In this document: positions 11,539-30,376 of the stretch, piece after piece | How the letters are laid out: the number at the start of each line of letters is the position of its first letter | How positions within the stretch are numbered: position 1 is the stretch's first letter | NCBI GenBank assembly: GCA_002345025.1 | Contig: DDUX01000154.1 | Coordinates: 28,075 to 92,074 of the forward strand | Length of the DNA: 64,000 bases | Source: Candidatus Accumulibacter iunctus | GTDB taxonomy: Bacteria > Pseudomonadota > Gammaproteobacteria > Burkholderiales > Rhodocyclaceae | Reading direction: 5' to 3' | The notes under the pieces: generated by a model | The model's database searches: none | What the model saw: only the letters and a program-made list of their open reading frames with translations | Told to the model about the DNA's origin: nothing | Translations under genes and position numbers: made by a program

Positions 11539-11552
11539 GAAACCAATAGTAA

Positions 11553-12114: not shown

Positions 12115-13035
12115 TTAAAGCATCGCGTCATGAAGCCGCCATCCGTCCCCTGCCCGCCATGTCATGGCGTAACTGTCCCTCGCGGCGACCGACCCCAGCA
12201 GCGGCAATAGAAAATTTCGCAGATCGGCGATCACTGCCGCCAGCGGGATCAGAGCGATGGCGTTCTTGTGCAGGAACGCCTGCCATTGTTTTTCCTTCTG
12301 AGCGTCGTTGATGAACTCGTCACTCAACCCGATCGGCACACCCATGGGAATCGCGGTGCGCCGACGCTCGAACGTGGCCGCGACGGCCCGCGACAACACC
12401 GTGCCGTCGAAGTCCGAATGCTTTGCCAGCACCCAGAGGTCGAAGAAATCCTTCATCCGGCTGTTCAGCATGCCGAGCGACGTCAGCGCCTCCAACTTCT
12501 CCGCAATGACCGTGTAACGAGGATAGGCGCGGAGTTGCGGCGCGGGCATCTCGCCAAGGAGGACGGGGTAGTGGACGTCCTCCGGGCCTGGTACGACGGC
12601 ATCCCCGAATCCGATGTCGACCCGCACTGGGCAACGGGCACTGTCCAGCAGCCCCATGAGCGTCACCCGAAAGCCGGCATAGTGCGCCTCCTTGCGGATC
12701 TCGACGGCCGTCACGGAATCAGGCTGAAACACGATGCCGTCCTCAACCTCAATGCGGCAGATGTCCTGGAAGACCTTTGCCAGATGAGGAATCTCGGCTG
12801 ATCCGAACCCAAGGAAATCGGCATCGTGGGTGGGCCGATGCGGCACGTCGAACCACAGGTCGAACAGCAACGCGCCCTTGAGCAGAAACTGGTCGCGCTG
12901 ATCCGAGATGCTCAAGCGGTAGAGCAGGCGCTCCAGCGCATAGCGGGTTAGCAACAGATTGTAGTCCAGCCTATCGGCGCGGGCCTTGTTGAGCAGTCGA
13001 TCCCGGATGGAGGCTCCAATATTCCGGACCGTCAT
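12115..13035 (-). CDS. abiEii: Nucleotidyltransferase AbiEii/AbiGii toxin (type IV TA / abortive infection)
   Basis: N-terminus MTVRNIGASIRDRLLNKARADRLDYNLLLTRYALERLLYRLS...LLKGALLF..DADFLG is typical of AbiEii. ATGA overlap with the upstream AbiEi gene. Confidence 0.85.
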   Translation of the reverse strand: MTVRNIGASIRDRLLNKARADRLDYNLLLTRYALERLLYRLSISDQRDQFLLKGALLFDLWFDVPHRPTHDADFLGFGSAEIPHLAKVFQDICRIEVEDGIVFQPDSVTAVEIRKEAHYAGFRVTLMGLLDSARCPVRVDIGFGDAVVPGPEDVHYPVLLGEMPAPQLRAYPRYTVIAEKLEALTSLGMLNSRMKDFFDLWVLAKHSDFDGTVLSRAVAATFERRRTAIPMGVPIGLSDEFINDAQKEKQWQAFLHKNAIALIPLAAVIADLRNFLLPLLGSVAARDSYAMTWRAGDGWRLHDAML

Positions 13036-13631
13036 CCCAGGCTTTCCAGGTAGGGACGCATCACGTTGGCGACACGGCAAACCTTGGCGTAGCGCCAGAT
13101 GTCGTCACTGGTTACGCGTTTCTCGTGCCATGCCTCACGTAGCGCTTCCAGGGCAACGTCAAGGCCGATCTTGTTGCGGTATTTAAAGCAGTCGGCGACG
13201 GTCTTCGCGACGCAGGTGACGCGGACGGTCACCCTGTCCACGGCATGTTCCTCGACACCCTCGGTGAGTGCCGCACCCGAAAAGCGGACGATGCGTAGCG
13301 GCGGGTAATCGAGCTTCGGCGCGATGGACTTGTTCTCGATAGCCAGCCACACTGCAAACGGGGCCTGGGTGGTCAGGCCATGAAAACGAAGTGCCGAGAG
13401 TAGGCAGACGATTCCTTTGGGCACCCGGCGCGCCACTTCTGCCAGCGCCCCGTGGGCGGAAACCTCTCGCCCGGGCAGCCCGTAGAGACCCCGTCCAACG
13501 CGCTCCAGTTGCCCACGGCAAACGGCACGTGTCAGGGAAACCCGGGAGATTCCCAGAGGTGCCAGATCACACGGGCGGATCAGCCCTTGGGATCGCGCCA
13601 AGTCGATCAGCCTCTCGGCAACGTTGTTCAT
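13032..13631 (-). CDS. abiEi: AbiEi antitoxin / transcriptional autoregulator
   Basis: AbiEi-like sequence (RLIDLARSQGLIRPCDLAPLGISRVSLTRAVCRGQLERVGRGLY...), translationally coupled to the abiEii-like gene. Confidence 0.8.
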   Translation of the reverse strand: MNNVAERLIDLARSQGLIRPCDLAPLGISRVSLTRAVCRGQLERVGRGLYGLPGREVSAHGALAEVARRVPKGIVCLLSALRFHGLTTQAPFAVWLAIENKSIAPKLDYPPLRIVRFSGAALTEGVEEHAVDRVTVRVTCVAKTVADCFKYRNKIGLDVALEALREAWHEKRVTSDDIWRYAKVCRVANVMRPYLESLG

Positions 13632-13946
13632 GTCGGGCATGGTGGGCCATAACATCGGTAAATGTCAATAATTGCCGATGACGTGGAACACGTCGTGGTG
13701 CGGCACACCCAAACCGACTTCGATCCTATCGCAGCTGTCGGAGCGAAAGATGAGGCCATTCCGGGCAAGCAACGCCAGAGAGAAAGATGGCCCGGAGCGA
13801 GTGGAATATGACAAATCAAATCGGTCTTGCTTTGTCGACGTGCCCCACCTCAATTTTCGGCCAGGCAACACCGGTTACGTTTGCGTATCCACACATAAAA
13901 CGAGGCATACTGCCCGAGAAGACGAGACGAGCAGGAAGCAATAGAC

Positions 13947-14981
13947 ATGACTGGAATCAACCGCACCGACCGCTTGCGCCAGATCCAGGGACTACTCAGC
14001 CCCCGCCGCGTCACTTGCCGAAGTGAACTGATGGAAAAGTTCGGCATCTCTCGCGCCACCCTTGGTCGGGACATCCAGGAGTTGCGAGACCGCTTCCAGG
14101 TTCCCATTGACTACGACCCGGAATACGGCGGCTACCGACTCGGCGCTCCTGAAGAAGCCGGAGGCCAGTTCGAACTGCCACACATGTGGTTCTCTGCGGA
14201 AGAGATCCACGCGCTCCTGACCATGCAGCATCTCCTGAGCAACCTCGACACCAGCGGCCTGCTGGGGAGCCAGATCAAGCCACTGCTCAATCGTTTGACG
14301 AAACTGCTGGGAGCGGGTGACAACCCGAGCGCGGAAGTGGCTCGCCGAATCCGAATAGAAACCGTCGCTGCCCGATCCTACCGCCTGGAACATTTCCAGG
14401 CCGTGGGCAGTGGTCTATTGCGACGGCGCCGGCTGGTGATCGGCTACCATGCCCGCGGCACAGACGAGCACACCCGGCGCGAAGTATCGCCTCAGCGCCT
14501 GGTGCACTATCGGGACAACTGGTATCTCGACGCTTGGTGCCACCTGCGCAACCAGCTGCGCGCATTCGCCGTCGACGCGATCCGCGATGTCCGGGTGCTC
14601 GATCGACCGGCCGTCGACATCGACGACACTGAGCTGGATCGGGAATTGGGTAGTGGCTACGGCATTTTCTCGGGCGCCTCGGTGCTCTGGGCCAAGCTAC
14701 TCTTCAGCGCCGAGCGCGCACGGTGGGTAGCCAATGAAAAGTGGCACCCGGCCCAGCGGGGCCGTTTCCTGGACGACGGACGCTATTGGCTATCCCTTCC
14801 CTACAGCCGCGAGCCGGAACTTATCATGGACATCCTGCGCCATGGCCGTCACGTGACGGTACTGGCCCCCGACTCGCTGCGCGACGCAGTTCAGCAGGAG
14901 CACCTCGCGGCGAGCAAGAATCTGGGCGCGTGCTCACAAATTGAGCCTGCCGACCTTCACAATCAGGACAAAGAGGCGTGA
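13947..14981 (+). CDS. HTH + WYL domain transcriptional regulator (YafY/BrxR/CapW-like architecture)
   Basis: N-terminal HTH (CRSELMEKFGISRATLGRDIQELR) and a central WYL segment (LVHYRDNWYLDAWCHLRNQLRAFAVDAI). AGGAAG RBS. Same strand as the cas genes and directly upstream of them. Confidence 0.85.
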   Translation: MTGINRTDRLRQIQGLLSPRRVTCRSELMEKFGISRATLGRDIQELRDRFQVPIDYDPEYGGYRLGAPEEAGGQFELPHMWFSAEEIHALLTMQHLLSNLDTSGLLGSQIKPLLNRLTKLLGAGDNPSAEVARRIRIETVAARSYRLEHFQAVGSGLLRRRRLVIGYHARGTDEHTRREVSPQRLVHYRDNWYLDAWCHLRNQLRAFAVDAIRDVRVLDRPAVDIDDTELDRELGSGYGIFSGASVLWAKLLFSAERARWVANEKWHPAQRGRFLDDGRYWLSLPYSREPELIMDILRHGRHVTVLAPDSLRDAVQQEHLAASKNLGACSQIEPADLHNQDKEA

Positions 14982-15039
14982 CGCCCTCACACGAATCCGC
15001 ATCCCGGCACAACCGAAACCCTTGGAGCCAATCGCAATC

Positions 15040-15645
15040 ATGGAATCACCCAGGATAGACCTCCTTTTTCCGCTGCATGGCCATGAAATTCCCCTGGATC
15101 ACGGCTATGCGCTGTACGCTGCGCTATCCCATGCGCTCGAATCCGCGACCGACCCCTGGCTGCACACACGAGAGGATGTGGGTTTGCACCTCATCCGAGG
15201 GAGCTATCGTGGAAAGGGCCGCTTGGCGCTGAGCCCCGCATCGCGGATTGCCATCCGCCTGCCGGTAACGCTGGTCCACAAGTTCCTTCTCCTGGCGGGC
15301 CAACAACTGACGCTGGGTACCGACCCGCTGCGCTTGGGAATCCCTCAACCCCAAGCCCTCCAGCCTGCTCCCGCGCTCTACGCCCACTTGGTCACCACCC
15401 GTAACGGCCAGGATGAGAGTCGGTTCGACACCGAAATGGCTCACCAATTGGCCGAACTGGCGATTCGAGGTAGCCCGCAACGTGGTCCCCGACGAAGTTT
15501 CACGATCAAGGACAGGAAAGTCGTTGCTCACACGCTGCTGGTCAGCGAATTGACGGCAGAGGAATCCATACGGCTGCAGGAACATGGGCTGGGAGGAAGA
15601 CGGAAGCTGGGGTGTGGAGTGTTTGTACCATGGCAAACGAGATGA
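15040..15645 (+). CDS. cas6: Cas6-family RAMP protein, Cas6/Cmx6 (MYXAN-subtype)-like
   Basis: 201 aa. The C-terminal glycine-rich RAMP loop GLGGRRKLGCGVF parallels GVGHAKAFGCGLL in the locus Cas6e. I recognise the N-terminus IDLLFPLHGHEIPLDHGYALYAALS as Cmx6-like. It sits immediately 5' of a cas3-like start. No profile search was run. Confidence 0.55.
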   Translation: MESPRIDLLFPLHGHEIPLDHGYALYAALSHALESATDPWLHTREDVGLHLIRGSYRGKGRLALSPASRIAIRLPVTLVHKFLLLAGQQLTLGTDPLRLGIPQPQALQPAPALYAHLVTTRNGQDESRFDTEMAHQLAELAIRGSPQRGPRRSFTIKDRKVVAHTLLVSELTAEESIRLQEHGLGGRRKLGCGVFVPWQTR

Positions 15646-15896
15646 CTCTTCTCCTTGCCAAATCGGTCCCGAAAGGCCAGACCCCGAAAACTCTGGTAGC
15701 CCACTCTCTGGAAGTAATGGACGCTTTTGTCGGTCTGTTTGGCACCTTGGTTGAGCCAACACGGCTAGGGCAACGATGGCTGGCTTTTTTCGGGCTGCCG
15801 AACGCGCTTTGGCCGGTTTTCTACCGCCACGGAGCAAAACAGGCGAAACCGGGCTCAGAGTTTGCGCCTGCACGCGTTCATAATGGCTGCCAATAG
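15630..15896 (+). pseudogene. Probable 5' stub of a second cas3 (HD-domain N-terminus only)
   Basis: The 88-aa ORF overlaps the cmx6-like stop by 16 nt. LLAKSVPKGQTPKTLVAHSLEVMDAF resembles the Cas3 HD N-terminal pattern (AHS/AKS ... L.eHL..V), but no HD dyad or helicase motifs follow. It ends 31 nt before the I-E cas3 ATG. Confidence 0.35.
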
Positions 15897-15927
15897 AGGC
15901 GAACACGGCACGCACAGGAGATGAACG

Positions 15928-18729
15928 ATGCGAGATGAGGCGCAGAGTTACTTCCGTTACTGGGGCAAGGCGCGGGCGACGGGTCTGCAGAACGATGCGT
16001 ACCACCTGCTCGTGTACCACTGCCTCGACGTTGCCGCGGTTGGAACCCTCTACCTGCGCCGCTCCCCGGCGTTACTGGACATCTTCCGACACCTCACCGG
16101 CTTCGCAGACGACGAACGGCTCCTGAAGTGGCTGGCGTTCTGGTTGGCTTTGCACGACGTCGGAAAGTTCGCCGAAGCTTTTCAGGGCCAGCAGCCCCAC
16201 ATCGTCGCCTCGCTGCGTGGGCGCGAGCCGCTGGCGTCGAAAACCTATAGCCTGCGGCACGATAGCCTCGGCTGGTTGTTCTGGACAGAAGTCCTTCGGG
16301 ACAAGGCTGCGGCAGAAAGCTGGTTCGGAGCGCGCACTTCCTCCGCCCTCAAGGGGCTGGACTGGTGGGCCAGGGCGGTGACGGGCCACCACGGCATGCC
16401 CCCGCAGCCGGCGAGCGATTGGTTGAGCCACTTCGACAGGGACGACCGCGCGGCTATCTGTGCCTTTGTCGCCGAGTTGCTGGAACTCTTCCTTCCGGGA
16501 GAGCCGCCATGCCTCCCGTCTGCCGATGGTGCCAGGCGCTTTTCGGCGGCGAGCCGTGATGCGTCTTGGTGGCTCGCGGGACTGACCGTTCTTGCAGACT
16601 GGCTGGGGTCGAATTCCGATCGCTTTACTTATGTGACGGCAGCCGTACCGCTGCGCGAATACTGGTTGCGCAGCAAGGGCGTGGCGGTACAGGCGCTTGA
16701 AGCGTCTGGTGTTTTGCCAGCGGCGCAGCGAGTCGACGTGTCGTTCGGCGACCTGTTTCCCGGTATCCAGTCACCCTCTCCCTTGCAGAATTGGGCTTGC
16801 CGTGTGGAGCTGTCGCCGGGACCCCAGATCTACATCCTCGAGGACGTCACCGGTGCCGGGAAAACCGAAGCGGCATTGAAGCTCGCACAGCGGCTGATGG
16901 CAGCAGGCCGCGCCGATGGGTTTTTCGTCGCTTTACCGACGATGGCCACCGCAAACGCGATGTACGGGCGCATAGCCAGTGTGTACCGCCGCCTGTTCAT
17001 GGGCAACGCGAGCCTCGTTCTGGCCAACGGCCAACGTGATCTCGTCGAACTGTTCGCTGCCTCGGTCGTTCCACCTGGCCCTGCTGATACCAGTGTGGGC
17101 GACGAGACGGCAACGGCTCGCTGCACCGCCTGGTTGGCTGACCACAACAAACGTGCGTTGCTCGCCCCCGCTGGCGTAGGTACGATCGACCAAGCCCTGC
17201 TTGCCGTTCTTACCAGCAAGCACCAGTGTCTGCGGCTACTCGGTCTGCTCCGTAAGGTTCTGGTGGTGGACGAGGTGCATGCGTGCGATGCCTACATGCA
17301 GCGAGTCCTCGAAACGCTGCTCGAGTTTCACGCACGCTCTGGCGGCAGCGCCATCCTCCTCTCGGCGACCCTGACCGATCGCATGAAGGAGGAACTGGTT
17401 GAAGCCTTTGCGCACGGCTGTCGCGCCGATCCACCGCGACCGGCTGCGGCATCGGAAACTCCGTATCCGCTGGTCAGCCGCTGGTCGCCAGCGCGACCAG
17501 ATGTGCTTGAACAGAAGCCGCTGGGGACCCGCTTCGACGTTCGCCGCCCGCTCGGTGTGCGCTACATCAGCGAGCCTGATCTGGTTGTTGGCGTCATTGA
17601 AGCGGCGCTGGCTGCTGGCAAGTGTGTTTGCTGGATGCGCAACACCGTTGCCGATGCGCTCGATGCCCACTCTTTGTTCCAGGAGCGCATTCCGGCCGAC
17701 AGGATCATTCTTTTTCACGCCCGCTTCGCGCTGCGCGATCGACTCCATGCTGAAGACCGCGTCCTTGCGGCGTTCGGGAAGGACAGCACTCCGGAGTCCC
17801 GTGCGGGGCGGCTGGTGATCGCCACGCAAGTGGTCGAACAGAGTCTGGACGCCGACTGGGACTTGGTGATCAGCGATCTGGCGCCTGTTGATCGTCTGAT
17901 CCAGCGTGCCGGCCGGCTGCAACGTCATCCGCGCGACACTGCCGGAAGGCGGCTCGCCGACCCTCGCGCGACCGATATGCGCGGCACACCTTGCCTGTGG
18001 GTTCTCGGGCCCGTCTGGGAGGAGAATCCCGATGCAGCCTGGTTTACCGCGGCGTTCCCGCGAGCTGCCAAGGTCTATCCTCACCACGGGCAGCTATGGC
18101 TGACCGCCCAGGCGCTGCGGAAAGCGGATTTCATCACCATGCCCGACGACGCACGTCGCCTTATCGAGTGCGTGTTTGGCGGTGAAACGCCGCTACCGGA
18201 GGCACTGGAAGAGAACGCGATGCGGGCCGTGGGCCAAGCCTACGCCGACGCGGCCGCCGCACAGCAGAACACGGTCAAGCTGGGAAACGGTTACGTTCAT
18301 TGCGGTCTCGACTGGTGGGGGGAGGCAAAGAGCCCTTCGCGGCTTGGCGAGGTGACTGCGACGGTCGTTCTCGCGTGTTGGCGTGGCGACCAGCTGAAGC
18401 TCTGGGCGCCTGGGGCGCTTGCGTACAGCAGCCTGCGCGTTGCCGAGCGGCTGATTGCTGAGGCGATGGAGCCCGAAGAGATGTCCCGGCGAGCCGAGTT
18501 CAATCGGTTTCGGCAGGACTTGCCAGATCACGGGAAATGGTCGGTGGTCCTGGCGCTCGATGAAACACCAGAAGGATGGATTGGGGAGGCCTGGCGGCAG
18601 CCACTGAAAGGACAGCGAGAGCGGGCGCGTTGGCAGTACTGCGCAAAGCTCGGGTTGCGGCAGGTGGTTGCGCCGAGTGCGGCGCACTCGGCGCTGCCCC
18701 GCGATGCGCGGGGAACGGATCGGTCATGA
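15928..18729 (+). CDS. cas3: Type I-E Cas3 (HD nuclease + SF2 helicase)
   Basis: N-terminus YFRYWGKA...YHLLVYHCLDVAAV...LHDVGKF is the HD domain. Helicase motifs GAGKTEA and VVDEVH are present. 933 aa, with an AGGAG RBS. Confidence 0.95.
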   Translation: MRDEAQSYFRYWGKARATGLQNDAYHLLVYHCLDVAAVGTLYLRRSPALLDIFRHLTGFADDERLLKWLAFWLALHDVGKFAEAFQGQQPHIVASLRGREPLASKTYSLRHDSLGWLFWTEVLRDKAAAESWFGARTSSALKGLDWWARAVTGHHGMPPQPASDWLSHFDRDDRAAICAFVAELLELFLPGEPPCLPSADGARRFSAASRDASWWLAGLTVLADWLGSNSDRFTYVTAAVPLREYWLRSKGVAVQALEASGVLPAAQRVDVSFGDLFPGIQSPSPLQNWACRVELSPGPQIYILEDVTGAGKTEAALKLAQRLMAAGRADGFFVALPTMATANAMYGRIASVYRRLFMGNASLVLANGQRDLVELFAASVVPPGPADTSVGDETATARCTAWLADHNKRALLAPAGVGTIDQALLAVLTSKHQCLRLLGLLRKVLVVDEVHACDAYMQRVLETLLEFHARSGGSAILLSATLTDRMKEELVEAFAHGCRADPPRPAAASETPYPLVSRWSPARPDVLEQKPLGTRFDVRRPLGVRYISEPDLVVGVIEAALAAGKCVCWMRNTVADALDAHSLFQERIPADRIILFHARFALRDRLHAEDRVLAAFGKDSTPESRAGRLVIATQVVEQSLDADWDLVISDLAPVDRLIQRAGRLQRHPRDTAGRRLADPRATDMRGTPCLWVLGPVWEENPDAAWFTAAFPRAAKVYPHHGQLWLTAQALRKADFITMPDDARRLIECVFGGETPLPEALEENAMRAVGQAYADAAAAQQNTVKLGNGYVHCGLDWWGEAKSPSRLGEVTATVVLACWRGDQLKLWAPGALAYSSLRVAERLIAEAMEPEEMSRRAEFNRFRQDLPDHGKWSVVLALDETPEGWIGEAWRQPLKGQRERARWQYCAKLGLRQVVAPSAAHSALPRDARGTDRS

Positions 18730-19175: not shown

Positions 19176-20819
19176 ATGTCGCTACTGACCGAAGATTGGA
19201 TGCCGGTTCGCTATCGTGATGGCTGCCGCGCTTGGGTCGCACCAAGCGAACTCGCCGATCCCCGCATCGTCGCCTTTGACGCCGATCGTGCCGATTTCAA
19301 CGGCGCCCTCGTGCAGTTCGCGATTGCCCTCCTGCAGACCAGCACCCCCGTGGTTGAGCCCGATGACTGGGACTTCTGGTTCGAGGATCCGCCCGATTCG
19401 GCGACCCTGACCGCTTGGTTTTCACCACTGGCGGCAGCTTTCGAGTACGACGGTGAAGGCGCGCGCTTCCTGCAGGATTTCGAGCTGAGGGCGGGGCGGG
19501 GCGTCTCGTTCGAAATCGCCGGCCTGCTCATCGAAGCGGCGGGAGAACAGTCGGTGCAGCGGAACACCGACCACTTCGTCAAGCACGGTCAGGTGGCGGG
19601 CATGTGTCCCCATTGCGCGTTGACAGCGCTGCTCACGCTGCAGATCAACGCGCCAGCGGGTGGATCAGGCCACCGCACCGGACTGCGCGGCGGCGGGCCG
19701 CTGACCACTCTTGTCCTGTGCCATCCGCAGCGCAGTCTGTGGCACGACCTCTGGCTCAACGTGCGTTCCCGCTCCGAGTTCCTCGCGTCTCAAGGCGACC
19801 CGCGCAAGGCGGCACCGCACTTTCGGTTTCCATGGCTCAGGGAGATCGGCGCGATCCAGCCGGATGGTGGCGAGACCTCACCATTGCTCGTGCATCCGGA
19901 CCATGTCTTCTGGGCGATGCCGCGCCGGATTCGGTTGGACCTGACCGATACGGGCCTTGGCGATTGCGACCTCTGTGGCCGGCACTGCGACAGACTCATC
20001 CGGCGCTACGAAACGAAGAATCACGGCCTCAATTACAAAGGCCCCTGGAACCATCCGCTGTCGCCGTACTACGAGACCAAGGAAGGCTGGCTGCCGATTC
20101 ATCCGCAGCCGGGCGGCATCGGCTACCGTCATTGGCTGGCGTGGGTCATGGGCGTAGCGACGCAACAAAAAGGCAGGCGGCCGGCAACCGTGGTCAGCCA
20201 TTTCCTCGCGCACCTCTTTCCGCGCGCCAAGGGACAGCGTCGCTTGTGGGCCTTTGGTTTCGACATGGACAACATGAAGGCCCGCTGCTGGTACGAAGCG
20301 ACGATACCGCTCTACGGACTGGCCGATTGTCAGCCCGAGGCGCAGCGGCAGGCGCAGGCGGAGGTGGGCCGCTGGCTTGCCGGAGCCGAACTGGCAGCGT
20401 CGTGCTTGCGCAGTGCGGTGAAGGAAGCCTGGTTCGGCAAGGAAGCCCGAGGTGACCTCAGCGCAGTCGAAGCAGGTTTCTGGAGCCGGACCGAGCCGGA
20501 GTTCTATCGGCAGCTCGAGTCGCTCATCACTTCCCTGCGCAGCGATGGTGATGGCGACTCCCGGGTCGATCGCTTGCCGGTCCGGGCCGCTTGGCATCGG
20601 AATCTCATCGACACGTGCGAGAGCCTTTTTGATGGCGAGTTTGTCGGCGTCGCGGCGATCGAACGTCAGAACATGCGACGCGTGGTCAAGTCTTGGCACC
20701 GCCTGAGGGCAAACCTCAGGGGACCGGCCATTCGCAAAGCGCTAGGACTCCCGGACGCCGAAGGTCCTGGCACAAGCAACAAGGCCAAGGGTGCATCCGC
20801 AGCCCCGCGAGCATCCTGA
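19176..20819 (+). CDS. cas8e: Type I-E Cas8e (Cse1/CasA), Cascade large subunit
   Basis: N-terminus MSLLTEDWMPVRY... is typical of Cse1. I chose the ATG at 19176 (AAGGAGAA / AGGAAG upstream) rather than the extended ORF start at 19011. Confidence 0.9.
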   Translation: MSLLTEDWMPVRYRDGCRAWVAPSELADPRIVAFDADRADFNGALVQFAIALLQTSTPVVEPDDWDFWFEDPPDSATLTAWFSPLAAAFEYDGEGARFLQDFELRAGRGVSFEIAGLLIEAAGEQSVQRNTDHFVKHGQVAGMCPHCALTALLTLQINAPAGGSGHRTGLRGGGPLTTLVLCHPQRSLWHDLWLNVRSRSEFLASQGDPRKAAPHFRFPWLREIGAIQPDGGETSPLLVHPDHVFWAMPRRIRLDLTDTGLGDCDLCGRHCDRLIRRYETKNHGLNYKGPWNHPLSPYYETKEGWLPIHPQPGGIGYRHWLAWVMGVATQQKGRRPATVVSHFLAHLFPRAKGQRRLWAFGFDMDNMKARCWYEATIPLYGLADCQPEAQRQAQAEVGRWLAGAELAASCLRSAVKEAWFGKEARGDLSAVEAGFWSRTEPEFYRQLESLITSLRSDGDGDSRVDRLPVRAAWHRNLIDTCESLFDGEFVGVAAIERQNMRRVVKSWHRLRANLRGPAIRKALGLPDAEGPGTSNKAKGASAAPRAS

Positions 20820-20843
20820 TCACCCAGCACAGAGGAAGGAAAG

Positions 20844-21377
20844 ATGTCGATTCAATTCATTGGCAGCACACATGAGCCGACGCGAGTTGGACGCGTACTG
20901 TTTGACTGGTGGCATGGCCTCGAAGAAGATCACGCCAGCCGCGCGATCGTGCGGCGCGCGGCGTCCCCCACAGCGGTCGCACTGACTGGACCATATCAGC
21001 GGCTGTATCGTCGCCTGCTCAAAGCTGGCTGGCCGGCCGATGCGACCGATGGGCAGGACGAGCGGCTGGCGGCGATTGTCGGGTTGCTGGCTCACGTCAG
21101 GGATGACACGGCACGTTCGAGTGGCGGTTCGCAATCGATCTCGGCAGCGATGAGTCAAAGGAGAACCGATCGCCCCCTGGTCAGCGAGCTGCGCTTTCGG
21201 CGCCTCCTCGAGTCGCCGGACTCCGACTCGCTGTTCACTGCGCTGCGCCGCGTGTTGCCATTGATGGACTACAGGATCGACGTGCTGGGGCTGGCCAACG
21301 ACTTCTTCTACTGGGGCGATGCAGTAAGGAAGCGATGGGCGTACGACTACCAGTGGCCAGAAGAAAAGAAAACCTGA
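20844..21377 (+). CDS. cse2: Type I-E Cse2/CasB (Cas11e), Cascade small subunit
   Basis: 177 aa, in the position and of the size of Cse2, with the C-terminal W-rich motif (DFFYWGDAVRKRWAYDYQW). Confidence 0.85.
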   Translation: MSIQFIGSTHEPTRVGRVLFDWWHGLEEDHASRAIVRRAASPTAVALTGPYQRLYRRLLKAGWPADATDGQDERLAAIVGLLAHVRDDTARSSGGSQSISAAMSQRRTDRPLVSELRFRRLLESPDSDSLFTALRRVLPLMDYRIDVLGLANDFFYWGDAVRKRWAYDYQWPEEKKT

Positions 21378-21436
21378 TATCGAGCAAGAGCCCGAATGAC
21401 TGAGCAGTTTCTCGCATCCCATACAAGGAGCCACGA

Positions 21437-22501
21437 ATGTCCCGTTTTGTTCAGCTACACCTTCTGACCAACTATGCGCCCTCCAATCTCAACCGCGATG
21501 ACACTGGGCGACCGAAGAATGCCCTCGTCGGGGATGCGCTCCGCTTGCGCATTTCCTCCCAGTGTCAGAAGCGCGCATGGAGAACTTCGGATGCCTTTGC
21601 AGGTGCGTTGGGCGATCACCTCGGCACGCGAACGAAGCGTCTCGGCAACGAGGCGTTTCAGGCCCTTTGCAACGCTGGGGTGCGCGAAGCAGATGCGCGC
21701 AAATGGAGTCGCATGATCGCCGGCTGTTTCGGAAAGCCGAAATCCGAGAAGAAGACCGATAATGATGAGGATCTCGAGATCGAGCAGCTCGCACACGTGA
21801 GCACCGACGAGCGGGCTGCGGTGCGGGAGTTGGTAGCAAAATGCGCGCAACGTGGCAGCGGACCGGAGGGGGAAGAGCTGTCGCTATTGCGCAAGCCTCG
21901 ACACGACGTTGACATCGCAATGTTTGGACGCATGCTTGCCGATTCTCCGCAGTTCAATGTCGAAGCTGCCGTGCAGGTTGCGCACGCGATAACCGTGCAC
22001 CGTTGCACCGTCGAGGACGACTACTTCAGTGCCATCGACGACCTCAACCGCGATGCGCCCAACGCCAGCCACATTGGTGAGCGCGGGTACGGAGCGGGAT
22101 TGTTCTACCAGTATGTATGCATCAATAGAGAGCTGCTGTCTGACAACCTCGGCTGCGACGGTGAGCTGACTGCCAGGGCGCTGGCGGCACTGGTGCATGC
22201 AGTGACCAAGGTCACGCCCAATGGTATGCAGAGCAGTTTCGCTTCGCGCGCGTACGCGAGCTACGTGCTTGGGGAAAAAGGCGATCAGCAGCCCCGTTCG
22301 CTTGCCGAGGCTTTCCTCCAGCCCATCAAGCCGACGGGTGACCGCGGCATGCTCGATTCGGCTATCGCGAAGCTCGAAACATGGCAGAAGCACTTCGACG
22401 ACGTGTACGGTGCCTGCGCCGCCAGCCGCTACACGATCAACGTGGTCACGGGTGACGGGCGGCTGACCGACCTCGTTGCTTTCGTGCAGGCCGAACCATG
22501 A
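21437..22501 (+). CDS. cas7: Type I-E Cas7e (Cse4/CasC), Cascade backbone
   Basis: MSRFVQLHLLTNYAPSNLNRDDTGRPK... is the hallmark Cas7e N-terminus. 354 aa. Confidence 0.95.
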   Translation: MSRFVQLHLLTNYAPSNLNRDDTGRPKNALVGDALRLRISSQCQKRAWRTSDAFAGALGDHLGTRTKRLGNEAFQALCNAGVREADARKWSRMIAGCFGKPKSEKKTDNDEDLEIEQLAHVSTDERAAVRELVAKCAQRGSGPEGEELSLLRKPRHDVDIAMFGRMLADSPQFNVEAAVQVAHAITVHRCTVEDDYFSAIDDLNRDAPNASHIGERGYGAGLFYQYVCINRELLSDNLGCDGELTARALAALVHAVTKVTPNGMQSSFASRAYASYVLGEKGDQQPRSLAEAFLQPIKPTGDRGMLDSAIAKLETWQKHFDDVYGACAASRYTINVVTGDGRLTDLVAFVQAEP

Positions 22502-23223
22502 CCGAGTTTCTGGTATTCCAGCTTCGCGCGCCGCTCGCATCCTGGGGCGAGCCCGCAGTTGGCGAGTACCGAGGCAGCCGCGAATACCCCGGCGAATCAG
22601 CGTTGATCGGCCTACTCGGGGCAGCTCTGGGTGTGCGAAGAGATGACGAACCCGCACAGCAGCGGCTACGTGCGGGTTACGCCTTCGCCGTGGGTGTGCA
22701 CGAGGCCGGAACGCTCATGCGCGATTACCATACGGCGCAGGTTCCCAGCCGAACGACACTGAAAGGACGCCCGCGTGTGACAAGAAGCGACGAGTTGTCG
22801 CCGTCTCGGCATGAGTTGAACACGATCCTGTCAACGCGAGACTACCGGCAGGGCGCAGCGTGCATCGTCGCCATGCAGTCGATGCCGGACGCGGTGTACT
22901 CGCTGGCTGCCTTGGCAGAGGCTTTGCTCCAGCCACGTTTTGTACTGTACCTCGGACGCAAGGCCTGCCCTCCGGCGGCGCCACTTTGTCCGCAGATCAT
23001 AGCGGCCGACAATGCCCTCGCTGCGCTGCACTCGTACGGCATCGAGCTGGCTAGTCGCAACGGGGTGACGGTTCGTCGACTTGTGCGACTGGCTTGGTCG
23101 GAGCGTACGCTGGCGGGGGCCGAACCTGACCTCAGCGCGCCCCGTAAGGATCGCGTCATCCGCCGGGCAGCGTGGCAGTTCGGCGATCGTACGGAACACA
23201 TCAAACTGCTTGCGGGAGCATGA
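22498..23223 (+). CDS. cas5: Type I-E Cas5e (CasD)
   Basis: MTEFLVFQLRAPLASWGEPAVGEYR... is the hallmark Cas5e N-terminus. Overlaps the cas7 stop. Confidence 0.95.
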   Translation: MTEFLVFQLRAPLASWGEPAVGEYRGSREYPGESALIGLLGAALGVRRDDEPAQQRLRAGYAFAVGVHEAGTLMRDYHTAQVPSRTTLKGRPRVTRSDELSPSRHELNTILSTRDYRQGAACIVAMQSMPDAVYSLAALAEALLQPRFVLYLGRKACPPAAPLCPQIIAADNALAALHSYGIELASRNGVTVRRLVRLAWSERTLAGAEPDLSAPRKDRVIRRAAWQFGDRTEHIKLLAGA

Positions 23224-23915
23224 ACATGTACTTCAGCTTGATCACTGCCGCCGAAGGACGCGAGAGCGCCGCAGCGCACGAACGAATGCGAGCAGACGCC
23301 TACGCAGACCACCAGTGGCTGTGGCGCTTTTTCCGAACAGTTCCCGGGGGAAGCCGCGAGTTCCTGTTTCGCCGTCAGGACCGTGCAGACGCGCCCCGCT
23401 ACTACGTGGTATCCCAGACTCAGCCGGACGGCGGCAATTCGGCGTGGAGCGTGCAGAGCCGCGAGTACGCACCGATCCTTCGCCCGGGAGACCAGCTTCA
23501 GTTCGACTTGCGTGCCAATCCCGTCGTTACCGTTACAGACGGCAACCAGTCCAGACGCCATGATGTGGTGATGCATGGGAAGAAGCTGTTGCTGCAGCAG
23601 CGGGGTCTCAGCGCTTGGGCGCAGTGGAAGGAGAGCGACAAGCCGGCGCTTGCCGATCTAGTAAGGGACACATGCAGTACTTGGCTCGACCAACGTGCCG
23701 AGCGCTTGGGCTGCGAGATCGATCGCGACAGCCTCGCCGTAGAAGCATACGAGCAACATCGAGGGAAGGGGGAGAAGGTACAGTTCAGCACGGTGGATTT
23801 TTCAGGTGGACTCACCGTCGTCGAGCCGACGCGGATGCTTGATGCGCTATACCGCGGAGTCGGCCATGCAAAAGCCTTCGGTTGCGGGCTGCTGCTCGTA
23901 CGCCGGTCTGCTTGA
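23220..23915 (+). CDS. cas6e: Type I-E Cas6e (CasE), crRNA endoribonuclease
   Basis: Starts at the ATG in an ATGA overlap with cas5. MYFSLI...HQWLWRFF... and the C-terminal G-rich loop GVGHAKAFGCGLLLV are typical of CasE. Confidence 0.9.
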   Translation: MNMYFSLITAAEGRESAAAHERMRADAYADHQWLWRFFRTVPGGSREFLFRRQDRADAPRYYVVSQTQPDGGNSAWSVQSREYAPILRPGDQLQFDLRANPVVTVTDGNQSRRHDVVMHGKKLLLQQRGLSAWAQWKESDKPALADLVRDTCSTWLDQRAERLGCEIDRDSLAVEAYEQHRGKGEKVQFSTVDFSGGLTVVEPTRMLDALYRGVGHAKAFGCGLLLVRRSA

Positions 23916-24127
23916 ATGCCTCGCTCGCCGATCCAGTGTGAATGGGGTGGGGCCATCGCCGTACCAGGCGTTGGGTTTGGCGGCTGGCCTCGAGTGCGCG
24001 GTGTGGCCGGGTGGACGTCCGGGCGCTGCGGTGTTACGAGTGGATGGCGGGGGACTCGGGGCACGCGGCGAACTGCTTGGCCGCTGGGTCGATCTGAGGG
24101 GCTTCGTCGGACGAGGAGTGTGGAAGC

Positions 24128-25331
<1,204 letters not shown>

Positions 25332-25420: not shown

Positions 25421-28400
25421 GTGTTCCCCGCGCCCGCGGGGATGAACCGTCTGGATCCGTGCTGGAGAGTGCCGGAAGGGCGTGTTCCCCGCGCCCGCGG
25501 GGATGAACCGCGGTATGAACTCTGCATGGCCCAGGGTGAGAAGTGTTCCCCGCGCCCGCGGGGATGAACCGAACGTCGAGTTCTTCGGGATGCTGGCGCA
25601 GGCGTGTTCCCCGCGCCCGCGGGGATGAACCGCGATCGGCCAGCGCGGCCCACAGCCCCTCGAAGTGTTCCCCGCGCCCGCGGGGATGAACCGGCGCTCG
25701 CCCACTCCCTCCCCGGTGGGCTGGAGTGTTCCCCGCGCCCGCGGGGATGAACCGCGGCCGTGAGGCACCTCGGAATTTCTCAGGGTGTGTTCCCCGCGCC
25801 CGCGGGGATGAACCGCCGGGGGAGTCGCTTGGGTGTCCTGCTCCGGTCGTGTTCCCCGCGCCCGCGGGGATGAACCGGAGACGACCACGGGTGCCTTCAC
25901 GGTTTATGTGTGTTCCCCGCGCCCGCGGGGATGAACCGCAGCAGAGCACCCTCGAGCGCCGCATCAACGAGTGTTCCCCGCGCCCGCGGGGATGAACCGC
26001 GACAACCCAGATTCAACACCACAAGCTGCGAGTGTTCCCCGCGCCCGCGGGGATGAACCGTGCACGGCATGAACCGCCCGAAATCATCAGCCGTGTTCCC
26101 CGCGCCCGCGGGGATGAACCGATTCGGCAGGGCCATGGCGTGCGTCGGATGGCGTGTTCCCCGCGCCCGCGGGGATGAACCGGTCAGGCTCCTGGGTGGT
26201 GGGTGGTGGTTGGTGTGTTCCCCGCGCCCGCGGGGATGAACCGTTCATGTCGGCGACAGCGGCGGCAACTGATCCGTGTTCCCCGCGCCCGCGGGGATGA
26301 ACCGAATCCGTGGTCTCGATCGAGAATCGGCCGAGCGTGTTCCCCGCGCCCGCGGGGATGAACCGCCGAGGAACCGCCGGCCCATCAGCAGCGCGCCGTG
26401 TTCCCCGCGCCCGCGGGGATGAACCGTCCGGCGAGCCAGCACTGGTCGGTGCTGGGGTGTGTTCCCCGCGCCCGCGGGGATGAACCGATGACGAGCAACG
26501 GACACAAGGTCGCGCTGCTGGTGTTCCCCGCGCCCGCGGGGATGAACCGCCACGGTCGTTGATGGCCTGGTCCAGTTCCCAGTGTTCCCCGCGCCCGCGG
26601 GGATGAACCGTCGCTGCCAACGGCAACCTGATGGGCGAATACGTGTTCCCCGCGCCCGCGGGGATGAACCGAATCTGCACGGGGGATGGACAGCCAAGCG
26701 ACTGTGTTCCCCGCGCCCGCGGGGATGAACCGCCAATCCACAACGAGCGCAGTCTTGCCCGAGCGTGTTCCCCGCGCCCGCGGGGATGAACCGCCTGTCC
26801 CGTCGCTACCTGGTGGTGAGTCCGGGTGTTCCCCGCGCCCGCGGGGATGAACCGCGTGGCCCACGTCGTACCTTGATCCGCAGCAGGTGTTCCCCGCGCC
26901 CGCGGGGATGAACCGCCCGAGGAATCGGACTACTATGGACTAGGGCAGTGTTCCCCGCGCCCGCGGGGATGAACCGCGCTCGACGCTGATTTTTCACGGC
27001 GACCAGGGGTGTTCCCCGCGCCCGCGGGGATGAACCGTCGTACGGTACGGTTAACGGTACGGTCGTCTGGTGTTCCCCGCGCCCGCGGGGATGAACCGAA
27101 GGCAGAGCGCAAGCGGTACAGTCCAGATCCGTGTTCCCCGCGCCCGCGGGGATGAACCGGCGACGGTGATGGTGTTGGCGGTGGCGGACTGGTGTTCCCC
27201 GCGCCCGCGGGGATGAACCGGCGCTGATCGATACCACCGTCGCGCCGGTGGTGTGTTCCCCGCGCCCGCGGGGATGAACCGCACCTGTCCGCCCTATCCG
27301 TCGCGCAGCAGTAGTGTTCCCCGCGCCCGCGGGGATGAACCGATGCCCGCCTCGTTGGCGCCGTAGTATTCGCCGTGTTCCCCGCGCCCGCGGGGATGAA
27401 CCGCGATTCAGGATCTACGAGGACCGCATCAAAACCGTGTTCCCCGCGCCCGCGGGGATGAACCGTCGGCGCGATCTGCCCAAAAGTGGCGTCCTGCGTG
27501 TTCCCCGCGCCCGCGGGGATGAACCGGCCTCGACAGCCCGAACGGCCGCATCAAGGGAGTGTTCCCCGCGCCCGCGGGGATGAACCGTATCTCGGTGAGG
27601 TCGCGGGGTTGGGTGCCACGTGTTCCCCGCGCCCGCGGGGATGAACCCAGGGAATACTTGACTAAGTGTGGAGGGTATTAGTGTTCCCCGCGCCCGCGGG
27701 GATGAACCGGTCGGCGTCCGTCTGCGGCTCAAGCCTGCGACGTGTTCCCCGCGCCCGCGGGGATGAACCTCGATGATGCAACGGCGTTCCGAATGCTCAA
27801 GCGTGTTCCCCGCGCCCGCGGGGATGAACCGCCGGAGATCGCAACCGGATTGATTGCCGGCGCGTGTTCCCCGCGCCCGCGGGGATGAACCGGTCACCTT
27901 GTAGCCGCGCTGGACGACGTCGAAGTGTTCCCCGCGCCCGCGGGGATGAACCGTACGTTCCGCCGACGGGGAATGTCTGCGCTGTCGTGTTCCCCGCGCC
28001 CGCGGGGATGAACCGGCCATCAGGACGTTGTTGGTGATGCGGTAGACGTGTTCCCCGCGCCCGCGGGGATGAACCGATCGATCCCCCCTGCGGCTGGCTC
28101 GACTGGGCGTGTTCCCCGCGCCCGCGGGGATGAACCGCCCTCTTCAGCGGCGAAACCCCTGGCGCCGACGTGTTCCCCGCGCCCGCGGGGATGAACCGGA
28201 GCTTCCCGCGCGTGGCGTGTGCGGTACTGCGTGTTCCCCGCGCCCGCGGGGATGAACCGACCTTGGTCGTGTGGTTTTCGTCGGCGCCGCGGTGTTCCCC
28301 GCGCCCGCGGGGATGAACCGGATATCTGGCCAAGAACGGTGTAGGTGGTTTGGTGTTCCCCGCGCCCGCGGGGATGAACCGTCATCAATGGCGCTGGTCT

Positions 28401-30376
28401 GCAGATCAATTTTGTGTTCCCCGCGCCCGCGGGGATGAACCGGTGACGGTGATTTTGTGGTCTTCGGCCGGGCCGTGTTCCCCGCGCCCGCGGGGATGAA
28501 CCGTGTTGGTAGAAATTGACTGCAGCGTGGCGGCTGTGTTCCCCGCGCCCGCGGGGATGAACCGTACTGTTTGCCGGTCTTGGCGGAAATTCCGTTTTGT
28601 GTTCCCCGCGCCCGCGGGGATGAACCCCCTTACGGGCTGGCGTGCCTTGGCGCTCCGGCGTGTTCCCCGCGCCCGCGGGGATGAACCGATCACGATCGTC
28701 GCGGCTCTGCTCGTGTTCACGTGTTCCCCGCGCCCGCGGGGATGAACCGAGGCTCAGCGTGTGTATCCGGGTCGGTCGGTCGTGTTCCCCGCGCCCGCGG
28801 GGATGAACCGGTCGGACCCATCGCTGTACGCATGTAATCGTAGTGTTCCCCGCGCCCGCGGGGATGAACCGCACTTCCCGGCCGCATGCACGACGCCGGT
28901 GTCGGTGTTCCCCGCGCCCGCGGGGATGAACCGGCGGCACATTCTGCGCCCGGCCGCAGAAGAAAGTGTTCCCCGCGCCCGCGGGGATGAACCGGTCTGG
29001 CTTGCCTGGGCGCTCCGGCTACGGGTGTGTTCCCCGCGCCCGCGGGGATGAACCGACGGCTGGATGATCGCCACGTCCGGCAACGTCGTGTTCCCCGCGC
29101 CCGCGGGGATGAACCGGTCGATTGGGCCGAGCGCAGCCAGTCCAAAGCGTGTTCCCCGCGCCCGCGGGGATGAACCGCACGGCCTCACCGAGATGCGCAT
29201 CTACCAGATGTGTTCCCCGCGCCCGCGGGGATGAACCGCGCGTCGGCGCCTACGTCGAGACCAGCAAGCAGTGTTCCCCGCGCCCGCGGGGATGAACCGA
29301 AAATTGGCGGTGCCGTCATCGCTGTTGCTCCCGTGTTCCCCGCGCCCGCGGGGATGAACCGGCACGAATCGTGACCCGACGTGCTCACGCCGCCGTGTTC
29401 CCCGCGCCCGCGGGGCTGAACCGCTCGCACCAATCCGCCAACGGTGGCGCCGGCTGTGTTCCCCGCGCCCGCGGGGATGAACCGCCGCGCGCGCCGAATC
29501 GAGCCTGGCCACATACCGTGTTCCCCGCGCCCGCGGGGATGAACCGTCCGCATCAGGGCGGCGGCTCATCGGCGGGAAGTGTTCCCCGCGCCCGCGGGGA
29601 TGAACCGACGCGGCATGTCGCGCCAATCCTCGACACTGAGTGTTCCCCGCGCCCGCGGGGATGAACCGTCGAGATGGGCGCGAACTTGTACATGGGAACG
29701 AGTGTTCCCCGCGCCCGCGGGGATGAACCGAAATCCGGCGGCCCGGTCACACAGCGCCGATCGTGTTCCCCGCGCCCGCGGGGATGAACCGAAATCCGGC
29801 GGCCCGGTGACACAGCGCCGATCGTGTTCCCCGCGCCCGCGGGGATGAACCGTCTTGCGAGCCCTTCCCGGTTTATGCATGCCCGTGTTCCCCGCGCCCG
29901 CGGGGATGAACCGGCGATTGTCTGGTCGAGGTCGACGTCGGGATTGTGTTCCCCGCGCCCGCGGGGATGAACCGGTCATGAGGGCGTCTTCCATGTTGGC
30001 GAAGGCGTGTTCCCCGCGCCCGCGGGGATGAACCTGAGCCGGACCAGCCGACCGCCGTGTGCCAGCCGTGTTCCCCGCGCCCGCGGGGATGAACCGCCCA
30101 GGGCGAGCAGCAGGGCGGCAAGGGTGGGGTGTTCCCCGCGCCCGCGGGGATGAACCATCAGCAGCAGGTCGCAGACGCGCACGATGCCCGTGTTCCCCGC
30201 GCCCGCGGGGATGAACCGGTGAATCGGGCATCGTCGAACAGCGCCGATTCGTGTTCCCCGCGCCCGCGGGGATGAACCGGGGTAGGCGATCTGTAGCGGC
30301 GCGGGGATGAACCGTACCGCGCGCGCATCGGGCTCATGCTCGGCGGCGTGTCCCCCGCGCCCGCGGGCAGGAACCG
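25421..30376 (+). CRISPR. Type I-E CRISPR array: 80 intact 29-nt repeats, one 15-nt truncated repeat, and one degenerate terminal repeat
   Basis: Repeat GTGTTCCCCGCGCCCGCGGGGATGAACCG, counted by hand from 25421 to 30251. The 79 spacers between intact repeats are 69x32 nt, 9x33 nt and 1x34 nt. The terminal repeat at 30348..30376 has 3 mismatches. Orientation is set by the leader, by the similarity to the E. coli I-E repeat and by the distal degeneracy. Confidence 0.97.

Follow-up and report, generated by a model that had tools for sequence, protein, structure and literature searches.

A probable recombination scar joining the head of a type I-B/MYXAN CRISPR-cas locus to a complete type I-E module

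Introduction

[quoted passage not shown] Why should an operon with an intact Cas6e of its own be led by these three elements? An earlier note, made from the sequence alone, had placed and identified all three correctly and had offered two readings: either the I-E module is joined to a second type I locus that was cut short within cas3 at the join, or the WYL and Cas6 genes are kept for a regulatory or accessory role ahead of the I-E genes.

We conclude that the locus probably arose by recent recombination of two CRISPR-cas loci, in a betaproteobacterium resembling Accumulibacter; it looks like a recent recombination scar, a case of ordinary CRISPR module shuffling, and not like a new accessory module. 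The data show what each part is, where the breakpoint lies, that the architecture is intact in relatives, and that the hybrid is clonal and does not recur. In the event proposed, a MYXAN 5' head (WYL, cas6/cmx6 and 68 cas3 codons) would have been fused at 15833/15834 to an I-E module equipped with a cas3 leader of its own, eight cas genes and an array, with the loss of the rest of the I-B locus: most of cas3, cas8/devT, cas7, cas5, cas4-cas1, cas2 and the 36-nt-repeat array. Such a locus offers a clean and datable case of CRISPR-cas rebuilding by recombination: the cas3 breakpoint is mapped to the nucleotide, what remains of the I-B operon includes an orphan Cas6 and a dead piece of cas3, and loci of parental type can be compared in their intact form. 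It also carries a warning for annotation, as automated typers would assign a second Cas6 here or class the locus as 'hybrid I-B/I-E'.

Table 1. Features at and around the junction (window coordinates)
Feature	Coordinates	Strand	Details and basis
abiEii/abiEi toxin-antitoxin pair, left neighbour of WYL	12115..13655	-	Pfam AbiEii 2.9e-49, AbiEi_4 1.1e-13
HTH_11-WYL-WCX transcription regulator	13947..14981	+	344 aa; head gene of type I-B/MYXAN cas operon; Pfam and PADLOC
Candidate cas6 promoter/operator	14931..14963	+	Palindrome TGCTCA-CAAAT-TGAGCC, 10 nt, -10-like CACAAT; motif recurrence
Intact cas6, Cmx6 (type I-B/MYXAN) family, orphaned	15040..15645	+	201 aa; Pfam, NCBIfam, PDB relative, predicted fold
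Type I-B (Cas3b) cas3 pseudogene fragment, first 68 codons	15630..15833	+	Protein matches; end of DNA homology
I-E cas3 leader, probably arrived with the I-E module	15834..15927	+	Palindrome, -10-like hexamer, ribosome-binding site
Complete type I-E cas3 (HD, helicase and C-terminal domain)	15928..18729	+	Pfam, NCBIfam
I-E cse1, cse2, cas7, cas5, cas6e, cas1, cas2	19176..25331	+	NCBIfam equivalogs, all over cutoff
I-E CRISPR array	25481..30377	+	29-nt repeat GTGTTCCCCGCGCCCGCGGGGATGAACCG, ~79 repeats; TRF and repeat search

Genes at the head of the locus

The first gene had been called an HTH and WYL regulator, and its product matches the Pfam models HTH_11 (1.3e-6, residues 10-64), WYL (5.1e-21, residues 148-217) and WCX (3.8e-15, residues 247-319) as well as the PADLOC cas-associated WYL profile PDLC01457 (5e-42), so that the N-terminal HTH, WYL and WCX architecture of defence regulators is present. 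WYL regulators of defence systems include Synechocystis sll7009 (type I-D), BrxR, CapW and PafBC (Makarova et al. 2014, PMC4012209); the window protein shares their HTH-WYL-WCX architecture and, as judged from the sequence, its gene likewise leads a defence operon. A 64-aa open reading frame predicted 5' of the WYL gene by gene callers is of low complexity and belongs to no family, and was taken as non-coding.

The second gene encodes an intact Cas6 of the Cmx6 family, as the earlier note had recognized. It matches Pfam Cas6 (PF09559) over its full length (2.5e-58; 197.7 bits against a cutoff of 26.7) and NCBIfam TIGR02807, cas6_cmx6, over profile positions 3-197 of 197 (1e-54; 185.5 bits, cutoff 98.85), and the Cas6 family profile finds PDB 8FCJ_B, the Cas6 of a type I-B CAST Cascade, at 1.8e-39. 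The AlphaFold model has a pLDDT of 73, and its best fold matches are both Cas6 proteins, 8FCJ_B (E 1e-12) and 3I4H of P. furiosus (E 9e-5); the two-RRM Cas6 fold and C-terminal glycine-rich loop are recognizable, the C-terminal half of the model being of low confidence. The loop, GLGGRRKLGCG, falls in invariant alignment columns, and all 43 of the 43 invariant columns in a 22-sequence family alignment are kept. The closest solved structure, 8FCJ chain B (35% identity in structural alignment), acts within a transposon-associated Cascade, whereas the window Cas6 has no Cascade partners nearby.

The third element is the start of a cas3 gene. Over ~67 residues from its start it shares 73% identity with the Cas3 N-terminus encoded at locus L014 and 87% with that of L013, and another 38 Cmx6 loci have matching cas3 N-termini, the similarity never passing residue ~71. 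In L014 the Cas3 reading frame that follows cas6 contains Cas3_HD and DEAD domains, with Cas3b as its best PADLOC model (2.4e-39), and the intact Cas3 proteins of relatives are 754-761 aa long with DEAD and Helicase_C domains. The 16-nt overlap of the stub with cas6 is the same in intact relatives such as L014. The 88-aa stub reading frame has no profile match in Pfam, NCBIfam or PADLOC, Cas3_HD included. Homology to Cas3 stops at residue ~67 (FYRHG), at the point where the Cas3 of a relative runs on with LAAAGLHDPGKA; past 15833 the frame runs into foreign sequence, and it stops at 15896, 31 nt before the I-E cas3 ATG, as had been noted. Neither HD metal-binding motifs (H...HD...) nor SF2 helicase motifs occur in the 15630-15896 frame, and we infer from this that the stub is dead. 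An absence of similarity to the Cas3 proteins of L001 and L012 had suggested that it was unrelated to Cas3, a view overturned by the match to L013, L014 and L015: closely related cas6 genes precede two different types of Cas3 N-terminus, and the stub is of the L013/L014/L015 type.

The type I-E module

The I-E cas3 product matches Cas3_HD over the full profile (4.1e-42) and Cas3-like_C_2 (8.7e-33) in Pfam, and passes the cutoffs of the cas3_core and cas3_HD models; its match to the whole-length NCBIfam model PRK09694 is strong (9e-146), with a score of 487 bits that lies below the 569 cutoff. The gap between cas3 and cse1 is 446 nt. All eight genes of the canonical (E. coli-type) type I-E system, cas3, cse1, cse2, cas7, cas5, cas6e, cas1 and cas2, are present together with the array and match I-E equivalog models, in agreement with the earlier description of the operon as complete. 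The 29-nt repeat folds to a 7-bp hairpin typical of I-E, and the last repeat (30347-30377) is degenerate. The closest I-E Cas3 that we found is only 64% identical. No Rfam families were detected within 13000-31000.

The cas3 leader contains the palindrome GGCTCA-GAGTT-TGCGCC (15852-15868), a -10-like CATAAT (15879-15884) and, upstream of the start codon at 15928, the ribosome-binding site AGGAG. The segment 15852-15884 corresponds to a palindrome and -10 module known upstream of other I-E cas3 genes and is nearly identical to that of locus L105, and CACGCGTTCATAAT, 3' of the palindrome, is identical in the I-E cas3 upstream region of L105; no homology of 15834..15927 to MYXAN loci was detected. 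The same stretch was considered as a leftover C-terminal tail of an I-E-type WYL gene, but apart from the palindrome its alignment with L095 and L098 is weak, and a conserved cas3 leader like that of L105 seems the better explanation.

Comparison with type I-B/MYXAN loci

Type I-B 'MYXAN' or MxI-B systems (Cas8b3/DevT class; the Myxococcus xanthus dev-linked locus) have the order cas6-cas3-cas8-cas7-cas5-cas4/cas1-cas2 (PMC11237760). The window cas6, an equivalog-level Cmx6 member followed by a cas3 start with the usual overlap, fits the beginning of this order, but only the head survives. By tblastn the 64-kb window contains no MYXAN cas8, cas7, cas5, cas4-cas1 or cas2, and neither the 36-nt MYXAN repeat of the relatives nor a MYXAN-type array occurs in it. 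With cas8b/devT, cas7/devR and cas5/devS missing and cas3 cut at codon 68, the window does not hold a working type I-B/MYXAN system; the cognate cas3-cas8b-cas7-cas5 module and 36-nt array are absent beside Cmx6 here and present in L001, L012 and L015.

Such intact loci are found in Accumulibacter-like contigs, where WYL-cas6-cas3-cas8(DevT)-cas7-cas5-cas4/cas1-cas2 is headed by the same WYL gene and a related cas6. L001, L002 and L003 carry abiE-WYL-cas6-cas3-devT-cas7-cas5-cas4/cas1-cas2 and a 36-nt-repeat array, all intact, and the same MYXAN gene order is seen in L012 and in L015, an Accumulibacter sp. MAG. The WYL protein of the complete L001 locus is 95% identical to that of the window and its AbiEi is 97% identical; the abiEii/abiEi pair adjoins the same WYL gene in both L001 and L013.

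DNA homology to the MYXAN relatives extends to 15833, some ten codons short of the HD motif, and in two independent relatives, L014 and L015, it is lost at exactly this position. Together with the synteny of the relatives, this end point bears out the first of the two earlier readings, a second type I locus truncated inside cas3 at the I-E join. No repeat is common to the two sides of the junction, and a right-hand junction was not found; the event may have run in either direction, with an I-E module replacing the I-B tail or an abiE-WYL-cas6-cas3' fragment landing in front of a resident I-E operon. Recombination between CRISPR-cas modules has been estimated in the 2025 classification (PMC12669027). 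As in other cases of module shuffling, the window combines segments of different ancestry in one locus, to which it adds mosaicism within WYL-cas6; it differs in that the junction falls within the cas3 gene instead of between modules, leaving a dead fragment and an orphan Cas6.

The MYXAN repeat of the relatives (36 nt, CYGCCACTATCYCTGATGCCGAAAGGCGTTGAGCAC; hairpin AUGCCG/CGGCGU-type) is unrelated to the 29-nt I-E repeat. On the recombination reading, the working immune system would be the I-E one, its 29-nt repeats presumably cut by Cas6e, and Cmx6 would be an orphan, lacking a cognate repeat and Cascade partners within the 64-kb window, probably still intact because there has been too little time for decay. 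A MYXAN-type array, or an effector module that lacks a Cas6, may nevertheless lie elsewhere in the genome.

Distribution and age of the hybrid

We surveyed Cmx6 loci for recurrence of the arrangement, using 69 species-level representative loci with enough downstream sequence and 72 loci for the count of upstream WYL genes. A MYXAN-type cas3 lies directly 3' of Cmx6 in 66 of the 69, and I-E genes follow it in none; conversely, none of 80 sampled I-E loci has Cmx6 upstream, or the stub or MYXAN genes. A WYL gene upstream of cmx6 is a regular MYXAN-type feature (34/72 loci).

The hybrid occurs solely in near-identical contigs. At least six share the identical junction (GCA_035436365.1 and GCA_003542235.1 from NCBI, three JGI metagenomes and one ENA assembly), and over 15 kb they show 0-18 nt differences to the window, none of them in WYL-cas6-stub. 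Confinement to such contigs argues that the event is recent. A chimeric contig, in which two loci were joined through a shared repeat during assembly, is extremely improbable: the same junction recurs in contigs from different samples and pipelines and has no shared repeat, and nothing specific speaks for an artefact, although the MAG and metagenome matches suggest metagenome-type data.

The recency of the event also bears on the proposal that the WYL gene and stand-alone Cmx6 form a selected front end of the I-E system, in which Cmx6 might for example process a second RNA or modulate I-E crRNA supply. In its favor, both genes are intact, cas6 retains every invariant family residue, and pairwise dN/dS is below 0.2 for each (WYL 0.09-0.13 against L013/L015; cas6 0.17). 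Because the hybrid copies are essentially identical, these low values reflect history before the event, and since the event is recent the intact genes are no evidence of selective retention, as the earlier note had argued them to be. The dead stub is preserved equally well and no more diverged than its neighbors, which makes preservation uninformative; its dN/dS of 0.25 (11 synonymous and 9 non-synonymous changes), set against 0.17 for cas6, gives no sign of long neutral decay. Moreover, the combination recurs in none of the 69 Cmx6 or 80 I-E loci, the neighborhood survey for WYL-cmx6 upstream of I-E cas3 returning only near-identical hybrid copies; the cognate repeat is absent from the window and unlike the I-E repeat, and the locus owns an intact Cas6e. 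We therefore regard a selected front end as very unlikely.

Along 13000-15800, identity to the relatives runs at 95%, then 71-76%, then 90-97%. Within cas6, codons 1-120 have a dS of 0.86 to L013 and codons 121-201 a dS of 0.21, with dN/dS below 0.2 in both. The divergent 5' part was considered as decay, which is ruled out by a dS of 0.86 with dN/dS 0.17; it is therefore a recombined allele formerly under constraint.

WYL genes and palindromes upstream of cas operons

The earlier note knew of no described I-E operon led by a WYL gene together with a Cmx6-type Cas6. As far as the WYL gene is concerned, such a position is not unusual: one is found upstream in 15 of 53 I-E loci (non-redundant sample), and the closest I-E relatives, L095-L099 (Cas3 62-64% identical), all carry a WYL-WCX gene overlapping or abutting cas3, the position occupied in the window by the I-B WYL-cas6-cas3' instead. 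The window WYL protein is 50% identical over 315 residues, SRATLxRD helix included, to that upstream of the L095 I-E cas3, and both match the same cas-associated WYL profile. Because all of these relatives have a WYL gene directly before cas3, retention of the I-B gene may not be purely accidental.

The palindrome and -10 architecture listed in Table 1, which sits in the 3' tail of the WYL gene ~107 nt before the cas6 ATG, recurs 5' of the first cas gene in 18 of 85 MYXAN and 21 of 75 I-E loci (background 0.12 per kb), and we infer that it is a candidate cas6 promoter/operator. Related palindromes, GCTCA-N5-TG(A/C)GC, precede both cas6 and the I-E cas3 in the window. Terminator-like matches in 13500-19300 number 7, compared with 5.8 expected from shuffles, and the stretch from cas6 to the I-E cas3 has no convincing terminator. 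On the recombination reading, production of the WYL protein probably continues, as does its action at the promoters of its own locus, and since no convincing terminator intervenes, transcripts from the WYL and cas6 promoters may run into the I-E cas3 in addition to those from the promoter-like element in the I-E leader.

These observations raise the possibility that the scar is as described but that the I-B-type WYL was kept functionally and now controls the I-E operon, the I-E clade's own pre-cas3 WYL having been lost in the event and cas6 and the stub being passengers; control would act by read-through from the WYL gene's own promoters, through the related palindrome in the I-E leader, or both. 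The WYL genes overlapping or abutting cas3 in L095-L099, the resemblance of the window and L095 proteins with their similar HTH, the related palindromes and the want of a convincing terminator from cas6 to cas3 are all consistent with such a transfer of control. Against it, the palindrome as WYL operator finds no support among I-E loci, where palindrome and WYL presence are not associated (5/14 vs 10/39, Fisher p = 0.5), so that WYL may not be its binder; no operator common to the regions 5' of both kinds of WYL gene was found, nor a palindrome shared among the regions 5' of WYL genes in 52 loci; the closest match to the window I-E leader, L105, has no WYL gene upstream; and the hybrid is of too recent origin for selection to be visible. 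We consider it unlikely.

A broader version, for which we see a rather poor chance, would have the I-B WYL controlling the foreign I-E operon, WYL and the palindrome-plus-(-10) forming an interchangeable 'head', and Cmx6 perhaps serving a distant array. Such a head would take the form GGCTCA-N5-TGAGCC, 11-12 nt, CAnAAT, before both I-B/MYXAN and I-E operons in Proteobacteria, with odds that are similarly low; were it true, whole effector modules could be swapped under one regulator. The wider potential of the locus is in any case solely regulatory: in these bacteria, operons of the I-B/MYXAN and the I-E kind are headed by homologous WYL genes, and the two kinds share a palindromic promoter element 5' of their first cas gene. 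If WYL and palindrome are linked, this would be relevant to the activation of type I CRISPR expression in environmental Proteobacteria. A different palindrome, AGTCTCA-N5-TGAGACT, is found upstream of WYL only in the three closest I-E relatives.

A WYL-cas6-stub head in front of a type I-E system

The earlier note's observation of a WYL regulator, a Cas6 and a cas3-like stub ahead of a complete type I-E operon is correct in every particular. In PADLOC, the regulator hits the profile for cas-associated WYL proteins at 5e-42. Cas6 matches Pfam PF09559 over its full length (2.5e-58) and scores 185.5 bits against the NCBIfam equivalog TIGR02807 'type I-MYXAN Cas6/Cmx6' (cutoff 98.85). A profile built on 22 family members recovers one solved relative, Cas6 of a type I-B CAST Cascade (8FCJ_B; 1.8e-39), and the best fold matches of the AlphaFold model (pLDDT 73, with a good N-terminal half) are 8FCJ_B and P. 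furiosus Cas6; the proposed Cas6/RAMP identity is thus borne out. The stub has zero profile matches in Pfam, NCBIfam and PADLOC.

Genes at the left of the locus and around the junction (window positions)
Feature	Position	Strand	Remarks
fic-domain gene	10489-11661	-	left of WYL
abiEii/abiEi type IV toxin-antitoxin pair	12115-13655	-	immediately left of WYL
WYL regulator, 344 aa	13947-14981	+	HTH_11, WYL and WCX domains (Pfam)
cas6 (Cmx6), 201 aa	15040-15645	+	Pfam, NCBIfam
Stub ORF, 88 aa	15630-15896	+	16-nt overlap with cas6 stop
I-E cas3	15928-18729	+	start of complete type I-E system

The I-E system is complete, with cse1, cse2, cas7, cas5, cas6e, cas1 and cas2 following cas3 in that order, and its array has about 79 repeats of 29 nt. 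A degenerate terminal repeat (CGTGTCCCCCGCGCCCGCGGGCAGGAACCGG) at 30347-30377, 97 nt past the last regular one, marks the old end of this array. The cas3-cse1 gap is 446 nt long (18730-19175), while the same two genes overlap in L095, one of the closest I-E relatives; it holds the only sigma70-like match in 13500-19300 (TTGACA-17-TAGTAT, 19011-19039) and 8 of the 18 SNPs between two variants of the hybrid locus (L006/L007) and the window.

The stub is the start of a type I-B cas3

Cas6 has 918 homologues at E ≤ 1e-5. Contigs with a 77-85% identical Cas6 (L001-L003, L012 and L015) have the order WYL-cas6-cas3 (754-761 aa)-DevT/cas8-cas7-cas5-cas4/cas1-cas2 and then a 36-nt-repeat array, the same layout as that published for MxI-B (type I-B, Cas8b3), in which cas6 leads and Cas4 is fused to Cas1 (PMC11237760). 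The WYL of L001 is 95% identical to that of the window, and the abiEi to its left 97%.

In two further relatives, L013 and L014, the gene 3' of cas6 begins with the same 16-nt overlap, and the stub is 87% identical to its product over residues 1-60 (L013) and 73% over residues 1-67 (L014), confirming the suspected likeness to Cas3 N-termini. The L014 counterpart goes on to encode a Cas3 HD domain and a DEAD helicase, and its best PADLOC model is Cas3b. A further 38 Cmx6 loci have cas3 N-termini that match the stub, always inside its residues 1-71. DNA homology to L014 and L015 ends at exactly 15833, past ...FYRHG and about 10 codons short of the relative's LHDPGKA motif. This end of homology, together with the matches to cas3 N-termini, shows that the stub consists of codons 1-68 of a type I-B cas3 reading into foreign sequence up to its stop. 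The locus is a type I-B/MYXAN head, cut inside cas3 and joined to a complete I-E locus, which bears out the first of the two readings in the earlier note, a second type I locus truncated where the I-E module joined. It adds one more case to the module shuffling already known from CRISPR-cas loci.

The cognate Cmx6 repeat in Accumulibacter relatives (36 nt, C[C/T]GCCACTATC[T/C]CTGATGCCGAAAGGCGTTGAGCAC) forms a small 6-bp hairpin and bears no relation to the 29-nt repeat of the I-E array, which has a 7-bp G+C hairpin. Neither this 36-nt repeat nor any other MYXAN cas gene was found within the 64-kb window, and an intact Cas6e is already encoded by the I-E operon.

Recurrence and age of the hybrid

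Among Cmx6 loci with sufficient downstream sequence, surveyed with one genome per species, a MYXAN-type cas3 lies directly 3' of cas6 in 66 of 69, and I-E genes follow Cmx6 in none. A WYL gene is upstream of Cmx6 in 34 of 72 loci, directly adjacent in 23 of those. No Cmx6, stub or MYXAN genes were found in 80 metagenomic I-E loci related to the window Cas3, so WYL-cmx6 recurs before I-E cas3 in neither sample. At least six contigs, drawn from NCBI, JGI and ENA assemblies, carry the hybrid, so it cannot be a chimeric assembly.

Compared with the window, the hybrid copies show 0-18 nt differences over 15 kb and none in WYL, cas6 or the stub; the event that formed the hybrid is young. In pairwise comparison with the nearest relatives that lack the hybrid, WYL has a dN/dS of 0.09-0.13, cas6 one of 0.17 and the stub one of 0.25 (from 11 synonymous and 9 non-synonymous changes), and the dead fragment is therefore preserved as well as the intact genes. 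With the stub equally preserved and the copies near-identical, the intactness of WYL and cas6, from which selective retention had been argued, says nothing about selection.

The probable I-E cas3 leader and WYL regulators of I-B and I-E loci

No counterpart of 15834-15927 was found in MYXAN loci. This segment contains CACGCGTTCATAAT, identical to the upstream region of the I-E cas3 of L105, and a palindrome, GGCTCA-GAGTT-TGCGCC (15852-15868), with CATAAT 10 nt further on. Conservation suggests that it is the I-E cas3 leader, which came along with the I-E module. In Proteobacteria, 21 of 75 I-E and 18 of 85 MYXAN loci carry the general module (palindrome GGCTCA-N5-TGAGCC, 11-12 nt, then a -10-like hexamer CAnAAT/TAnAAT) 50-170 nt 5' of their first cas gene, against a background of 0.12 matches per kb; these include L012, L015-L017, L025, L032, L039, L095, L098, L103, L105, L106, L108, L109, L116, L121, L123 and L125. 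The module lacks a canonical -35 at 17 nt. The window has two copies, at 14931-14963 (WYL 3' tail, before cas6) and 15852-15884.

Even the nearest I-E Cas3 proteins share just 62-64% identity with that of the window. Their loci, L095-L099, each have a WYL-WCX gene of their own (342-356 aa) that overlaps or adjoins the start of cas3, and a WYL gene is upstream in 15 of 53 non-redundant I-E loci with sufficient upstream sequence; WYL ahead of I-E cas3 is normal in the clade of closest I-E relatives. A WYL-led I-E operon is thus not new as far as sequence data go, and it is the comparison with relatives on which both the novelty claims and the selective-retention argument fail. The WYL proteins of L095 and the window are 50% identical over 315 residues, HTH included. 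A modest functional possibility is that the I-B-type WYL already in place substitutes for an I-E-type one, but the data lend it no support: the palindrome and WYL genes show no association in I-E loci (Fisher p = 0.5) and no operator common to both kinds was found upstream of WYL genes. Only two leads are perhaps worth following, the palindromic promoter-like element that I-B and I-E loci share and their homologous WYL regulators.

The closest I-E relatives L095 (~4766-4784), L098 and L100 have a related palindrome, AGTCTCA-N5-TGAGACT, 155-210 nt 5' of their WYL gene, which has a similar palindrome on either side; it is not present upstream of the window WYL. There, a 64-aa ORF is called directly upstream of WYL (13750-13944; L002 427-621; L013 1578-1772; MRPFRASNAREKDG...), which is of low complexity, has no family match and is probably a non-coding leader. 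An inverted repeat, GACAAATCAA-N7-TTGCTTTGTC, at 13810-13836 could be a WYL operator.

Mosaicism and the surrounding defence island

Identity to L001, L013 and L015 is about 95% through WYL and 71-76% over 14900-15400, returning to 90-97% for L013 and L015 from 15400 to 15833. The divergent tract is sharply bounded and covers the WYL tail, the intergenic region and cas6 codons 1-120. Decay was rejected as its origin; a dS of 0.86 with a dN/dS of 0.17 indicates a recombined allele under constraint, apparently from an unsampled cas6. In L001 and L012, a related cas6 is followed by a Cas3 with an N-terminus of another type. From such patterns, Cmx6 loci evidently recombine often, and the junction between I-B and I-E is an extreme case.

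The region left of WYL is a defence island that has been rearranged repeatedly. In L001, abiE is present twice, with one copy 97% identical over 1.6 kb, next to fragments of cas1 and cas2 and genes for PIN and HipA_C proteins. G+C over the fic-abiE-WYL-cas region (10000-26000) is 0.59-0.64 versus 0.66-0.70 on either side, which fits horizontal acquisition of the defence genes.
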